This document shows positions 6,004-23,728 of a DNA stretch of 34,247 nucleotides, one piece after another. Source of the DNA: Saprospiraceae bacterium (GTDB lineage: Bacteria > Bacteroidota > Bacteroidia > Chitinophagales > Saprospiraceae). The notes beneath the pieces are model-generated. The model had not been told where the DNA came from. It saw only the letters and a program-made list of their open reading frames with translations, and searched no databases. How positions within the stretch are numbered: the first letter of the stretch is position 1; the number at the start of each line of letters is the position of its first letter. The stretch is taken from assembly GCA_020849825.1 (NCBI GenBank), contig JADZFP010000296.1:1-34247 (forward strand). Reading direction: 5' to 3'. Made by a program: the position numbers and the translations under genes.

Positions 6004-6036
6004 TTTGGAAAATCGAATCTCCTGTGCTTACCTTTG
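6004..6036 (+). promoter_or_regulatory. Candidate Bacteroidota sigma-A promoter for the ribosomal-protein cluster (TTTG-N21-TACCTTTG)
   Basis: TTTG at 6004-6007 and TACCTTTG at 6029-6036, about 83 nt upstream of the rpsJ ATG. Matches the published -33 TTTG / -7 TAnnTTTG architecture. Confidence 0.45.
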
Positions 6037-9162: not shown

Positions 9163-9429
9163 ATGCCGCGTTCGCTCAAAAAAGGCCCTTACGTACACCA
9201 CGCACTGACGGAAAAAGTCGCTAAGGCCAAACAAAGCAACAGAAAACAGGTGATCAAAACCTGGAGCCGCGCCTCCATGATCATCCCGGATATGGTCGGC
9301 GAAACCATCGCTGTCCACAACGGCAAAACATTCATCCCGGTGTTCGTCACCGAAAATATGGTTGGCCACAAACTCGGCGAGTTCGCGCCCACGCGCAACT
9401 TCCGCGGCCACGCCGGTAACAGAAAATAA
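9163..9429 (+). CDS. rpsS: 30S ribosomal protein S19
   Basis: 88 aa with [10 protein letters not shown]...[16 protein letters not shown]. Confidence 0.97.
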
Positions 9430-9573
9430 TGTGCTAATGTGCTAATGTGATAATGTGCTAACGTGGATAATGTGAAAATTTTTCACATCCTGCACTTGAG
9501 CAAATCATCAGCATATTACCTAATTGGCACATCAGCACACTCCTAATTAGCACATTAGCACATTAGCACATTT
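9427..9573. repeat. Octamer-repeat palindromic element #1 (TAATGTGC arms / GCACATTA arms), rpsS-rplV spacer
   Basis: The left arm has 3 GTGCTAA copies and the right arm has 3 TTAGCAC copies. The arms are reverse complements. Internal mini-hairpin GTGAAAATTTTTCAC at 9472-9486. Confidence 0.9.
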
Positions 9574-9581
9574 TTAATAAA

Positions 9582-9944: not shown

Positions 9945-9994
9945 CAATAACCCCGATCCACCCTCATTCGCACACTCACTCATTCAACAATACA

Positions 9995-10897
9995 ATGGGT
10001 CAAAAAGCAAATCCGATTGGTAACCGCCTGGGCATTATCCGCGGTTGGGATTCTAACTGGTACGCCGACAAAGACTACGGTCTGAAAGTAGTAGAGGACG
10101 AAAAAATCCGCACCTACCTCCGCGCCCGTCGCCCGAAAACGGCCACCGCCGATCCCCGCGAACGCAACAAACCGATGCAAAACGGTATCAGCCGCATCGT
10201 GATCGAGCGTACCCTCAAACGCGTTACCGTCACCATCCATACCAGCCGCCCCGGTATTATCATCGGTAAAGGCGGTAAGGAGGTTGACCTTATCAAGGAA
10301 GAGCTCAAAGTGCTCACCGGCAAGGATGTCCAAATCAACATCTTTGAAATCCGCAAGCCCGAACTCGACGCCAACATCGTAGGCGAACAAATCGCCAAAC
10401 AAATCGAAGCCCGTATCAACTTCCGTCGCGCCATCAAAGGCGCCATCCAGGGCTCGATGCGCGCCGGCGCCGAAGGTATCAAGATCCGCGTAAGCGGTCG
10501 TCTCGGCGGCGCTGAAATGAGCCGTGTTGAAGAACACAAGGAAGGCCGTACGCCGCTCCATACGTTCCGTGCCGACATTGATTATGCACTTGCCGAAGCA
10601 CAAACGGTGTATGGCAAAATCGGTATCAAAGTTTGGCTCTTCAAAGGCGAAGTGCTCCAAAAACGCGAACTCACTCCTTTCGCAGCAGCCGAAGGCACCG
10701 ATCGTGGTGACCGCGGTGGCGATCGCGGCGGAGATCGTCGCGGCGGCGGTGAACGCCGTGGCGGTGGCGAACGCGGAGATCGTGGCGAACGCGGTGAACG
10801 CGGAGATCGTCGCGGTGGCGGCGGTGGTGATCGTCGCGGTGGCGGCGGCGGTGGAGATCGCCGCGGCGGCGGTGGCGGTGGCAATCGCCGGCGCTAA
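9995..10897 (+). CDS. rpsC: 30S ribosomal protein S3 with a roughly 70-aa C-terminal RGG/GDR repeat tail
   Basis: 300 aa. [16 protein letters not shown]-like [18 protein letters not shown] and RADIDYA motifs. Tail is [63 protein letters not shown]. Confidence 0.96.
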
Positions 10898-11432: not shown

Positions 11433-11476
11433 GCCCGATCGCCCTCATTCGCTCATTCGCACACCGCTCATTCAAT

Positions 11477-11737: not shown

Positions 11738-11782
11738 TCAACCTATTCGCCCATACGCATTACCGCACATCGCACCAAAATA

Positions 11783-15137: not shown

Positions 15138-15198
15138 TCCGCTTCGTATAGTACAATTATCGCACAATCATTCAATCGCCCATTCGCACATTTATACA

Positions 15199-15717: not shown

Positions 15718-15802
15718 TTTTGTTGTTCGCTGCTGGTTGTTCGTTGCCTGCTCTTTGCACAACAAATAACCAACAACGGCCAACGCACAACGAACAACGA
15801 AC
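15718..15802. repeat. Imperfect palindromic spacer built from TTGTTCG / CGAACAA short repeats (rpsE-rpmD junction)
   Basis: The left half GTTGTTCGCTGCTGGTTGTTCGTTG is complementary to the right half CAACGCACAACGAACAACGAAC. For example, GGTTGTTCGTTG pairs with CAACGAACAAC. Confidence 0.7.
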
Positions 15803-19267: not shown

Positions 19268-19645
<378 letters not shown>

Positions 19646-19649
19646 TAAT

Positions 19650-19800
19650 TAATGTGCTAATGTGCTAATGAGATAATGTGCCAATTAAGAGAGCACTTAT
19701 CTGGTTGGTATTCTTAGCCGGTTCAAATAGCCATTAGCACATTAACTAATTAGCATATTATCTAATTAGCACATTGTCAAATTAGCACATTAGCACATTA
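19650..19800. repeat. Octamer-repeat palindromic element #2, rpsM-rpsK spacer
   Basis: 2 GTGCTAA copies on the left and 4 TTAGCAC copies on the right. The central core at 19691-19723 is shared with element #3. Confidence 0.9.
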
Positions 19801-19805
19801 ACAAT

Positions 19806-20198
19806 ATGGCCAAGGGAGCTAGCAAAAAAGTTGTCAAGCGCAAGGTTAAAGTGACGCCGGAAGGCCTCGTCTATATCCACGCCAGCTTCAACAACATCAT
19901 TATCTCGATCACCAACAAGCAAGGCGAAGTGGTATCCTGGGCATCGGCCGGCAAAGCCGGATTCCGCGGCTCGAAGAAAAATACCCCTTACGCTGCACAA
20001 ATCGCTGCCAACGACGCCGCAAAGACGGCTTTCGAGGCAGGCATTCGCGCCGCCGAGGTGTTCGTTAAAGGACCGGGTTCGGGTCGCGAGGCTGCTATTC
20101 GCGCCATCGACCAGTCGGGTATCAAAGTCATGATCATCAACGACGTGACCCCCATGCCCCACAACGGTTGCCGTCCGCCCAAACGCCGCCGCGTTTAA
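19806..20198 (+). CDS. rpsK: 30S ribosomal protein S11
   Basis: 130 aa with [19 protein letters not shown]...[14 protein letters not shown]...[13 protein letters not shown]. Confidence 0.97.
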
Positions 20199-20200
20199 GG

Positions 20201-20390
20201 AATGCGCTAATTAGTTAATGTGCTAATGTGCTAATTAGATAATGTGCTAATTATGAGCGCTTATCAGGTTGGTATTCTTAGCCGGTTTAACTAATCTATT
20301 AGCACATCAATACATTAGCACATTGACTAATTAGCACATTAGCCCCATTACCGAATTAGCACATTAGCACATTATCAAATCAGCACATTA
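20201..20390. repeat. Octamer-repeat palindromic element #3, rpsK-rpsD spacer
   Basis: 3 GTGCTAA copies on the left and 5 TTAGCAC copies on the right. The core at 20255-20287 matches element #2 at 30 of 33 positions. Confidence 0.9.
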
Positions 20391-20396
20391 TCAATA

Positions 20397-21011
20397 ATGG
20401 CTCGTTATACTGGACCAACGACAAAAAAAGCCCGCACGTTCGGCGATTCAATCTACGGCTACGACAAATATTTCGAACGTCGTAAGTATCCGCCCGGACA
20501 GCATGGCCAGGCCCGCAAGAAAAAAGCGGCCTCCAACTATGCTGTGCAGCTGTCTGAAAAACAAAAAGCCAAGTACACCTACGGTGTGCTCGAGCGTCAG
20601 TTCCGCAAGACCTTTCACGACGCCACGCGCCGCCACGGCGTTACCGGCGAAGTGTTGCTCCAACTGCTGGAAGCACGCCTCGACAACACGGTGTACCGCC
20701 TCGGCATCTCCCCGACCCGGCGCGGCGCCCGTCAGTTGGTTGGCCACCGCCACGTGACCGTCAACGGTAAAGTGGTCAATATCCCGTCCTATTCGCTGAA
20801 GCCCGGCGATGTGGTGGCCGTTCGCGGTCGCTCCAAGGGTCTGGAAGTTGTCACTACCCACGTGGGCGCCAAAACCAGCGATGTGCGCAAATTCGGCTGG
20901 CTGGAATGGAACCCCGATAAAATGTCTGGTATCTTCCTGGCCTACCCGCAACGGGATCAGATTCCGGAGAAAATCAACGAACAGCTGATCGTCGAGTTGT
21001 ACTCGAAATAA
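20397..21011 (+). CDS. rpsD: 30S ribosomal protein S4
   Basis: 204 aa with [13 protein letters not shown] and an S4 RNA-binding domain ([13 protein letters not shown]...[14 protein letters not shown]). Confidence 0.97.
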
Positions 21012-22163: not shown

Positions 22164-22164
22164 G

Positions 22165-22316
22165 TTAATGTGCTAATTAGTTAATGTGCTAATGTGCTAA
22201 TGACAAGGTTGTGTGCTATTTTTTCGAAACATGAGAAAAGCACTCAGCGCCCCGGAAAAGTCCACATCCGCCCATTAGCACATTGGCATATTAACCAATT
22301 AGCACATTAACACACA
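22165..22316. repeat. Octamer-repeat palindromic element #4, rpoA-rplQ spacer
   Basis: 3 GTGCTAA copies on the left and 2 TTAGCAC copies on the right. It has its own core, including the hairpin GTGCTATTTTTTC...GAGAAAAGCAC. Confidence 0.85.
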
Positions 22317-22394
22317 TTTTTTAACAAGTGCAGTAACCGTCGAGCGTCTTCAAGGGCTTGCCCCGGTGCTGCCACCTAAACTTAGGTACATCTC

Positions 22395-23114
22395 ATGCGA
22401 CACGGAGATAAAGTAAACAACCTCGGACGCACCGCGTCCCACCGCCGCGCCCTGCTGGCCAACCTGGCAAACGCCCTCATCGAACACAAACGCATCAACA
22501 CCACCCTGGCCAAGGCCAAAGCCCTGCGCCGCTACGTGGAGCCTCTGGTGACCAAAGCCAAAGACAATACCACCCACTCCCGCCGCGTGGTATTCAGCTA
22601 CCTGCAGAACAAAGACGCCGTCAAGGAACTGTTCAGCACCGTTGCCGCCAAAATCGGCGACCGCCCGGGCGGTTACGTTCGCATCATCAAACTCGGCTTC
22701 CGCCGGGGCGACGGCGCCGAAGTAGCCATGATCGAGTTTGTGGATTTCAACGAAACCTACAACCCGAAAGCCGGTAAAGAAGCCACGAAGAAGAAAACCC
22801 GTCGCGGCAACAAAAAGCCCACGGAATCCAAAGTCAGCGCCAAAGTAACCGAAGCCAAAGCCGCCGCTGCCGCTGCGCCGGTCGTGGAGGAAGAAGTAGC
22901 CCCGGTCGTTGAAGAAACCGTGGCCGCTATCGAGGAAACGCCTGTTGTGGAAGAAACGGTTGCTGCTGTTGAAGAAACCGCACCCGTTGTAGAAGAAACC
23001 GTAGCCGCCGTGGAAGAAACGGTTGCTGCTGTTGAAGAAGCGCCCGCCGCCGAGCCCGAGGCCCCCGCTGCCGAAGAAACGACGGAAGAAGAAAAGAAAG
23101 ACGAAGAAGCCTGA
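22395..23114 (+). CDS. rplQ: 50S ribosomal protein L17 with a roughly 115-aa Lys-rich then acidic Ala/Val/Glu/Thr repeat tail
   Basis: 239 aa. [21 protein letters not shown] is the canonical start. The tail carries repeated [12 protein letters not shown] units. Confidence 0.95.
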
Positions 23115-23204: not shown

Positions 23205-23728
23205 GGGATGGGAACGCGGATGACGCGGATTTGGGCGGATGGACACGGATTTTTTACCCGCGCAGCGGTGGTGTTTTTGGACAGGATGAACAAGATTTAC
23301 AGGATCGGACAGGATTTTTTTAGGGAAAGAAGCAACACCCACCATGCCGGCGCAGCCGGCATTTATCCTGTTAATCTTGTTGATCCTGTCTAAAAAAACA
23401 GTTTGGGGTTGGACAGGATGAACAAGATTTACAGGATCTGACAGGATTTTTTTAGGAAAGAAGCAGCACCCGCCATGCCGGCGCAGCCGGCATTTATCCT
23501 GTTAATCTTGTTGATCCTGTCTAAAAAAACAGTTTGGGGTTGGACAGGATGAACAAGATTTACAGGATTGGACAGGATTTTTTTAGGAAAGAAGCAACAC
23601 CCGCCATGCCGGCGCAGCCGGCATCTATCCTGTTTATCGTGTTTATCCTGTCAAAAAAGCACCCGCGCAGCGGGTAAAAAAAATCCGTGTCCATCCGCCC
23701 CAATCCGCGTCATCCGCGTTCCCATCCC
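23205..23728. repeat. Outer inverted repeat (arms 23205-23261 and 23670-23728) enclosing a tandem hairpin array
   Basis: The reverse complement of the left arm equals the right arm except for one substitution and an A-run of 6 versus 8. A 13-nt direct repeat ACCCGCGCAGCGG lies at 23256-23268 and 23661-23673. Confidence 0.9.
23279..23652. repeat. Three tandem units of about 131 nt (starts 23279, 23411, 23542), each an internal hairpin with a GCCGGCGCAGCCGGC apex
   Basis: Units are near-identical on direct reading. The unit arms GGACAGGATGAACAAGATTTACAGGAT and ATCCTGTTAATCTTGTTGATCCTGTC are reverse complements with 2 mismatches. Confidence 0.9.

Follow-up and report, generated by a model that had tools for sequence, protein, structure and literature searches.

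The rpsK-rpsD spacer of a Saprospiraceae bacterium (assembly GCA_020849825.1, contig JADZFP010000296.1; the 34,247 nt analysed here are called the window) is taken up by an imperfect palindrome, element #3, which is one of four such elements in a ribosomal-protein super-operon. Each element has two inverted arms around a middle, and the middle of #3 holds a 33-nt core that it has in common with element #2 in the neighbouring rpsM-rpsK spacer. We find that the arms are microsatellites of an octamer that occurs throughout the phylum, strictly polarised at gene boundaries. They slip by whole units, the middles are replaced while the arms persist, and #2 and #3 are paralogues as whole elements. 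The account that we consider probable joins these observations: with microsatellites as arms, the hairpin follows as a by-product of the arms' polarity, and the middles move between elements via arm-mediated recombination.

The super-operon lies on the plus strand in the order rpsJ ... rpsS, rplV, rpsC ... secY, map, infA, rpmJ, rpsM, rpsK, rpsD, rpoA, rplQ. Its L22 protein is also encoded on contig JAEUUU010000046 (GCA_016787345.1), where rplV differs at 4 of 363 nt. The octamer TTAGCACA, with at most one mismatch, occurs 32 times in the window, where 5 occurrences are expected, and the matches group into four clusters (9429-9571, 19652-19798, 20202-20388 and 22168-22307), within all of which the minus-strand copies precede the plus-strand copies. 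The clusters occupy the spacers rpsS-rplV, rpsM-rpsK and rpsK-rpsD and the first part of the rpoA-rplQ spacer (Table 1). Tandem Repeats Finder reports a period of 8 at 20201-20251 (6.4 copies) and at 20298-20390 (11.5 copies), and likewise in #1, #2 and #4. In #1, the TAA of the first octamer unit is at the same time the stop codon of rpsS. Element #3 had been described as the longest copy, spanning rpsK-rpsD; this is correct, and the element is in fact the complete 198-nt spacer between the S11 and S4 genes, with inverted arms of 44 nt (20201-20244 and 20346-20389) that are 86% complementary. Long imperfect hairpins are predicted for all four spacers (-56 to -95 kcal/mol, z = -6.9 to -9.4), the RNA fold of #3 reaching -68 kcal/mol (z = -7.9) and that of #2 -58 kcal/mol (z = -6.9).

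The distribution of the arms was surveyed by searching the 19-mer TTAGCACATTAGCACATTA in one genome per species. At least 119 stretches were found in these species-representative genomes, where about 4 are expected by chance; all taxa, orientations and distances that follow from this survey refer to the matches listed. The records belong to Bacteroidales, Chitinophagales, Flavobacteriales, Sphingobacteriales, Cytophagales and Saprospirales, and isolates such as Niastella populi, Flaviaesturariibacter amylovorans and Hymenobacter terricola carry the 19-mer. The exceptions from outside the Bacteroidota are one Chlorobiota contig, one Ignavibacteria contig and three contigs of a single Verrucomicrobiota metagenome-assembled genome (MAG), and one further contig is titled 'uncultured bacterium' with no phylum given. 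The octamers stand in strict 8-nt register, mixed with variants such as TTGGCACA, TCAGCACA, CTAGCACA, TTAGCAAA and TTAACCCA, and most arrays have a single orientation, without an inverted partner. In viral contigs the real 19-mer gave 24 stretches, compared with 7 and 4 for two scrambled versions. The genes flanking the arrays are genuine, as Pfam matches reach their last residues, and no functional association was found among 20 flanked proteins, which belong to unrelated Pfam families. A possible relation to the DnaA box was rejected: TTAGCACA and TTATCCCA resemble TTATCCACA, with three mismatches in the best register and no origin context. Logan unitigs with rplQ, rpsD or rplV of this species (L124-L132, L251-L256 and L265-L267 among our comparison loci) start or end inside octamer arms, which suggests that the genome has many copies of the arms and that assemblies break at them.

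The placement of the arrays follows a simple rule. Gene calls came from a model of codon usage, by which all ribosomal-protein genes of the window are recovered, and arrays were oriented as TTAGCACA. The 3' end of an array was found next to the start of a same-strand gene in 85 cases (median distance 49 nt, 30 within 30 nt) and next to the stop of an opposite-strand gene in 64 cases (median 7.5 nt, 51 within 30 nt). The 5' end faced the stop of a same-strand gene in 89 cases (median 131 nt, 10 within 30 nt) and the start of an opposite-strand gene in 45 cases (median 149 nt, 2 within 30 nt). Arrays at most 30 nt from a start codon are thus 30 in TTAGCACA sense against 2 in antisense (p = 2e-7), and those at most 30 nt from a stop codon are 51 in TGTGCTAA sense against 10 in the opposite one (p = 1e-7). 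The distances of the start-proximal arrays cluster at 8 and 16 nt. At stop codons, 20 of the 64 arrays lie at a distance of zero or less, and in 18 cases the stop codon is a TAA that completes an octamer just before the first perfect unit. In short, a spacer read away from any coding sequence begins with (TGTGCTAA)n.

Junctions between arrays of opposite orientation obey the same rule. All 23 observed in the at least 119 loci are of the '-+' type (p = 2e-7); by gene pair, 15 are tandem, 2 convergent and 2 divergent. As '-+' junctions occur in convergent and divergent pairs too, the polarity follows the gene boundaries and not the ends of an element. When arrays stand at both boundaries of a spacer with this fixed polarity, they therefore form an inverted pair, and a hairpin arises as an automatic by-product. 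The palindromes are a consequence of the polarity rule and not a separate design. The earlier note had derived from the conserved core a polarity of the element relative to transcription; such a polarity does exist, as a property of the arms with respect to gene boundaries, and is not specific to the core.

The sequence of the unit also bears on reading frames. One of its strands contains TAG and the other TAA, and because its length of 8 shares no factor with 3, every one of the six frames of an array is closed by stops, so that arrays cannot form part of a gene. By its sequence, (UUAGCACA)n contains no AUG, GUG or UUG, has little G and offers UAG in all three frames. The opposite orientation, (UAAUGUGC)n, has UAA in all three frames immediately behind the stop codon and reads as AUG-UGC-UAA mini-ORFs that overlap by one base.

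It may be asked whether the hairpin is itself selected, with a stem that enforces translational coupling of rpsK and rpsD to the cistron before them, or that serves as an RNase III processing or stability site tuning subunit stoichiometry. Stems of great stability are predicted (z = -7 to -9), with the stop codon at their 5' base, and in #1 and #2 the start lies 4-9 nt from the 3' base. A layout of stop, hairpin and start recurs in other orders (L010, L023, L094), few point substitutions are seen in the spacers, and the relatives L133 and L134 form hairpins in the same two spacers from other octamers, so that the arms co-vary. This co-variation is, however, automatic if a single family of units prevails in a genome and the arrays obey the polarity rule. 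Furthermore, L001 and L003, which have an identical S11 protein, possess almost no left arm and fold weakly (z = -1.5 to -3.6), and the left and right arms change independently, by the loss of three left units or the gain of one right unit. A test for selection on the mRNA strand, by excess of G-U pairs and by stability, was negative: G-U pairs are fewer in the mRNA strand, and in 9 of 11 informative spacers the antisense strand folds at least as well. Together with the predominance of partnerless arrays among the matches listed for the phylum, this makes a selected hairpin possible but doubtful.

Alternatively, the arrays might be sites for a conserved trans-acting factor, either a DNA- or RNA-binding protein of the whole phylum or a complementary small RNA, with the hairpins being incidental. 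An identical 19-mer across anciently diverged orders and its strict placement at gene boundaries would fit such a role, and for comparable TAACTGA-type heptamer arrays in other phyla binding of S1, Csp or Csr proteins has been proposed (PMC4679880). We nevertheless regard it as unlikely. No candidate factor was identified, the units turn over between related lineages (TTAGCACA, TTATCCCA, TTGACCACA) and are mixed within arrays, a single RNA-binding factor cannot read both orientations, and the flanking genes share no function.

The core of #3 and that of #2 read GAGCGCTTATCAGGTTGGTATTCTTAGCCGGTT and GAGCACTTATCTGGTTGGTATTCTTAGCCGGTT, respectively, both on the plus strand. The earlier note had placed them correctly and in the same orientation, with 30 of 33 positions in common; the identity is in fact 31 of 33, with mismatches at positions 5 and 12. 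The match is better than expected from local composition: none of 100 window shuffles gave any such match, blastn-short reports E = 4e-8 in 1.36 Mb, and the local alignment of the pair exceeds 2000 of 2000 shuffles. Similarity extends beyond the core, with 35 of 39 positions identical around it, and the whole spacers 19646-19805 and 20199-20396 align collinearly from end to end (84% column identity over about 160 columns). Left of the core, both elements also have the variant arm units in one and the same order, TGTGCTAA TGTGCTAA TKAGATAA TGTGCYAA TTA.... Since the homology covers the middle and the order of the variant units, #2 and #3 are related by descent and did not arise by independent slippage. 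The earlier contrast of descent against microsatellite slippage is not a real alternative, as both processes operate. In agreement with the note, neither #1 nor #4 has a middle related to the core, whichever the orientation (p = 0.25-0.97).

Copies of the core were searched in the window, 1.7 Mb of fetched loci, JGI metagenomes, plasmids and phages, and exactly two were found, adjacent to each other. The window and the fetched loci hold no further copy, and neither the plasmids nor the phages searched gave a match. The JGI metagenome contigs gave 0 matches, which is a weak test of copy number because the species is barely assembled there and only fragmentarily present (L257). The sister species (L001, L003) lack the core. 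The L250 lineage has both copies with the two private differences of each, and the copying event therefore predates the split that is marked by 7% divergence at third codon positions (49 of 694 between the window and L250). As the core is absent from L257, a strain of the same species, and from the sister species, it is dispensable, and it probably has no function of its own.

This bears on the idea that the core is a regulatory RNA motif, for example an autoregulatory S4/S11 binding site presented on a long stem 5' of rpsK and rpsD. E. coli regulates the operon containing rpsK and rpsD through S4, and the core precedes these two genes. In Flavobacteria-like relatives (L144, L166, L182, L198), the curated S4-Flavobacteria leader RF03141 is located in exactly the rpsK-rpsD spacer, where it served as our positive control, and both core copies have stayed unchanged between lineages 7% apart at third codon positions. 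RF03141 is a conserved 33-nt structured motif, but #3 and the core match it in neither sequence nor structure. The Rfam scan proposed by the earlier note gave no match at gathering thresholds in the whole window, and at permissive thresholds (E up to 10) in 19600-20450 it yielded only weak matches to miRNA-precursor models of plants and animals, which stand for long hairpins in general; S4 leaders did not appear. The suggestion that the core is a single-stranded loop is not borne out either, since its bases are not consistently unpaired in the predictions. Minimum free energy structures and pairing profiles differ between the two copies, although two copies give little power, and the T-to-A difference at position 12 turns a U-G pair into an A/G mismatch and breaks the only small stem that they could share. 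Considering also the absence of the core from L257 and the sister species, we hold such a motif to be very improbable. A small ORF was rejected, as the mini-ORFs that cross the core are in one frame in #2 and in another in #3. As a side observation, L170 also carries a Bacteroidales small signal recognition particle (SRP) RNA.

Comparison with closely related strains shows how the elements change. Alleles of #3 measure 174, 180, 198 and 206 nt. One extra right-arm unit is found in L123/L248, L253 and L255 (rpsD 1-3 of 615 nt from the window), while three left-arm units (24 nt) are missing in L250, L254 and L256 (rpsD 21 of 615 nt from the window), which keep the core. Element #1 has alleles of 152 and 160 nt, and eight strains with identical rplV (L258-L262, L264-L266) carry one extra unit. 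Hence whole-unit indels (+8 and -24 nt in #3, +8 nt in #1) occur between strains whose flanking genes are 96.6-100% identical. Element #2 is identical in L123, L249 and L250.

The middles are replaced as well. In L257 (rpsD 4 of 615 nt different, 99.4% identical; rpsK 2 of 333), #3 keeps both arms and has a different middle without the core; no cluster or excess of divergence lies beside the swapped segment. L263 (rplV 4 of 363) has a replaced middle in #1, and in L253 (rpsD 1 of 615) the start of the rpoA-rplQ spacer, that is #4, is replaced and bears AATGATGA-type units. The notion of arms carrying different cargo thus holds in spirit. The new middle of L257 matches the segment 22252-22274 of #4 in the window at 20 of 23 positions (one gap) in inverted orientation, which none of 2000 shuffles equalled; among 132 middle-to-middle comparisons, p < 0.001 was obtained only for this pair, for #2 and #3, and for one orthologous pair. 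At a larger distance, the sister species L001 and L003 (87-95% nucleotide identity over four genes) keep the right-arm arrays and have unrelated middles. L133, L134 and L135 (S11 89-93% identical) have an equal architecture in these spacers, for which the units are of the TTATCCCA or TTGACCACA type, and more distant relatives have short spacers.

In the account that we favour, the arrays would grow and shrink by replication slippage, to which the observed 8-nt steps point. The same arms in every element of the genome would provide homology for ectopic recombination, gene conversion or template switching, and such arm-mediated exchange may replace or flip the middles, consistent with the replacements and the one inverted module observed. 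The core would then be the footprint of one exchange between the spacers of #2 and #3, 560 bp apart, which is older than the split of the window and L250 lineages and has since been overwritten in one strain. The operon appears to be read through the elements. The canonical Bacteroidota promoter motif (TTTG-N17-21-TAnnTTTG) occurs just once in the window, upstream of the first ribosomal-protein gene at 6004-6036, and in none of the elements; 32 of 100 window shuffles also gave one or more matches to it. A search for tRNA and tmRNA genes found none. Intrinsic terminators were considered and rejected, a T-run directly following #1 only and none following #2 or #3. In the mRNA, the spacer hairpin would bring the upstream stop codon and the downstream start region to the base of the stem, and with the spacer looped out, a ribosome terminating on rpsK could still open and use the rpsD start, which would keep the translation of the two genes coupled. 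The polarity itself may reflect selection for start-codon-free, G-poor leaders and UAA-rich trailers.

[quoted passage not shown] The likeness to MITEs such as Correia elements is considerable: 150-200 nt in length, inverted termini with variable middles, a position between genes within transcripts, and predicted long RNA hairpins. The common, equally oriented middle of #2 and #3, the differing middles of close strains and the breaks of short-read unitigs at the arms, which imply multi-copy arms, are also expected of such an element. However, the arms are arrays whose unit number varies between strains and between both arms, and so there is no fixed terminus; across the whole phylum the octamer exists mostly as single, partnerless arrays among the matches listed, and the interpretation as terminal inverted repeats, put forward in the earlier note, is not supported. 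The proposed check for target-site duplications found no direct repeat beyond the palindrome flanking #2 or #3, a TA or TTAA duplication being indistinguishable from the arm. Moreover, the same junctions in relatives carry arrays with other middles instead of empty sites, the core was met nowhere else in the collections searched (the source genome lay outside the search), and no dispersed copies of the middle were found there. Among the matches listed, convergent and divergent gene pairs show the '-+' polarity as well. No transposase is evident among the ORFs of the window, of which the non-ribosomal ones were not compared with protein families. Transposition of the elements is not supported, and we judge this origin quite unlikely.

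Several points weigh against slippage of the arms and exchange of the middles as a full account. Between the window and L250, the spacers differ at 1 of 415 nt and #2 at 0 of 160 nt, compared with the 49 of 694 third codon positions (p = 1.5e-9 and 4e-5, respectively), and the longest difference-free tracts all span spacers, the one of 255 nt at 19595-19849 covering #2. This low substitution points either to purifying selection on the spacers, cores included, or to recent sharing of alleles. It is not what a pure junk model predicts, and it keeps a functional role for the folded spacer alive, though large changes are tolerated. The asymmetry between sense and antisense folding is weak (p = 0.065). 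The scan of the genome collection had no scrambled-octamer control, and in viral contigs the excess over the scrambled versions is only 3- to 6-fold. Recombination via the arms is deduced from its outcomes, with no intermediate or donor seen for L257 and L263, and as the searches left out the source genome, a dispersed core-bearing family is possible. Finally, the polarity is established as a rule, and the rationale for it that is based on translation is one that we infer.

Carried further, that rationale leads to a speculative proposal, to which we attach little probability: the octamer arrays could be a Bacteroidota-wide translational punctuation in a phylum that does without Shine-Dalgarno pairing. 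Before starts, (UUAGCACA)n would act as an unstructured leader, free of start codons and with stops in all frames, whereas (UAAUGUGC)n after stops would form a chain of UAA stops and one-codon AUG-UGC-UAA mini-ORFs. Facing arrays might zip into a stem and hand the terminating ribosome to the next start, like the shunt structure of plant pararetroviruses, and the common arms would additionally turn the spacers into a recombining cassette system.

No description of the octamer family was found in the literature, including full-text searches by sequence; searches on octamer, REP and other intergenic repeats in Bacteroidetes gave no account of it, and the paper on the RNA-binding protein RbpB shows no motif that fits. 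The closest relatives in kind are direct repeats of the heptamer TAACTGA, described from Beggiatoaceae, cyanobacteria and a few Bacteroidetes (MacGregor 2015, PMC4679880), one set of which, in Flexibacter litoralis, stands reversed immediately after a stop codon. Similar heptamers are the cyanobacterial short tandemly repeated repetitive sequences (STRR), whose role is still open (bioRxiv 10.1101/2022.06.06.494920). As in these systems, we see short intergenic tandem arrays with stops in the forward reading, placed in forward orientation a few nt 5' of starts (30 of 32 start-proximal arrays among the matches listed are in TTAGCACA sense), with variable unit number, mixing of related units and unresolved function. 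In contrast to the heptamers of the described sequences, the unit here is the octamer TTAGCACA, and it is phylum-wide in Bacteroidota where the heptamers are patchy. Inverted junctions number 23 in the at least 119 octamer loci, compared with one 'indirect repeat' in PMC4679880, which does not describe exchangeable middles. The long simple sequence repeats and variable-number tandem repeats that prokaryotes carry (Mrazek et al. 2007, cited in both PMC4679880 and PMC4060949) are, as far as these citing papers present them, head-to-tail units of 5-11 nt in intergenic regions with whole-unit copy differences between strains, and the period-8 arrays with their whole-unit strain variation agree with this description. 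Those repeats are, by the same citations, usually lineage-specific and tied to host adaptation or phase variation, unlike a phylum-wide family that is strictly oriented at gene boundaries.

Mosaic repeats between genes form a second group for comparison. A repetitive extragenic palindrome (REP) is a single imperfect palindrome, 20-40 nt long, whose GTAG head is conserved and which REP-associated tyrosine transposases (RAYT) mobilise. REPs and the bacterial interspersed mosaic elements (BIMEs) of enterobacteria, as well as the neisserial intergenic mosaic elements (NIMEs, dRS3-RS, with dRS3 a 20-bp repeat), are intergenic and often intra-operonic inverted repeats that form mRNA hairpins; they are recombination hot spots and polymorphic between strains. 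The mosaic organisation, with conserved repeats flanking variable or shared inner motifs, and the hairpins within operons are alike. The arms described here are not single 20-40 nt palindromes but microsatellite arrays of a tandem octamer that show slippage polymorphism, and no transposase is known to be associated with them. A REP-like hairpin inside an octamer array is what a composite tandem repeat of 52-60 nt looks like in a Crocinitomicaceae MAG, Ww7 (L049, positions 1333-1816, and L045), where octamers (TTAGCACA / TTAGCAAA) take turns with a small hairpin rich in GC (tcccgaagggtcggga).

The core alone records a minor and recent episode in the history of two adjacent spacers, and its context is of greater interest: one 8-nt family runs across the Bacteroidota with a strict orientation rule at gene starts and ends. 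Bacteroidota initiate translation without Shine-Dalgarno pairing, and sequences adjacent to starts and stops are thus direct candidates for marking starts and coupling neighbouring genes. Through gain and loss of units and replacement of middles, the spacers are among the fastest-changing parts of a highly conserved and highly expressed operon, and their alleles offer a natural series for testing the effects of hairpins on expression. In practical terms, short-read assemblies break at the arrays, which a genome scan can also mistake for mobile elements.

Table 1. Positions in the window of the four elements, the parts of #2 and #3, and the two genes next to #3.
Feature	Positions	Strand	Remarks
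Element #1, rpsS-rplV spacer	9427..9575	+	common arms, unrelated middle with its own small hairpin
Element #2, whole rpsM-rpsK spacer, 160 nt	19646..19805	+	paralogue of #3
#2 core copy, 33 nt	19691..19723	+	
rpsK (ribosomal protein S11)	19806..20198	+	between #2 and #3; Pfam Ribosomal_S11
Element #3, whole rpsK-rpsD intercistronic spacer, 198 nt	20199..20396	+	between the Pfam Ribosomal_S11 and Ribosomal_S4 genes
#3 left arm, about 6 TAATGTGC-type octamers	20201..20252	+	begins 2 nt past the rpsK stop codon
#3 core copy, 33 nt	20255..20287	+	unique middle about 20253-20297, about 45 bases
#3 right arm, about 11.5 TTAGCACA-type octamers	20298..20390	+	stops 6 nt short of the rpsD ATG
rpsD (ribosomal protein S4)	20397..21011	+	3' of #3; Pfam Ribosomal_S4 and S4
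Element #4, 3' of rpoA	22164..22311	+	common arms, unrelated middle

Repeats of other kinds are also present in the window. The rpsE-rpmD spacer (15718-15802) holds a second type of array hairpin, made of inverted heptamers (TTGTTCG-type on the left, CGAACAA-type on the right), for which folding of the antisense strand is better by about 10 kcal/mol than that of the sense strand. Four further spacers (9945-9994, 11433-11476, 11738-11782 and 15138-15198) end in degenerate C/A-rich units of 8-nt period (e.g., CTCATTCG), which stand in sense orientation just 5' of the start codon and have no inverted partner. Within a conserved block 5' of rplQ (22318-22394), a hairpin at 22328-22374 is common to L001, L003, L133 and L134; 4 of its 15 predicted pairs are kept through two-sided changes, it has no Rfam match, and it is a candidate L17 (rplQ) leader. 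The region 3' of rplQ (23277-23658) contains 2.9 copies of a 131-nt tandem repeat with 95% matches, a different and GC-richer family that recurs around 23680-23720. Two proteins of the operon, RplQ (239 aa) and RpsC (300 aa), have C-terminal extensions that derive from in-frame tandem repeats, with units of 21/42 nt in rplQ (22908-23108) and of 24/27 nt in rpsC (10704-10890).

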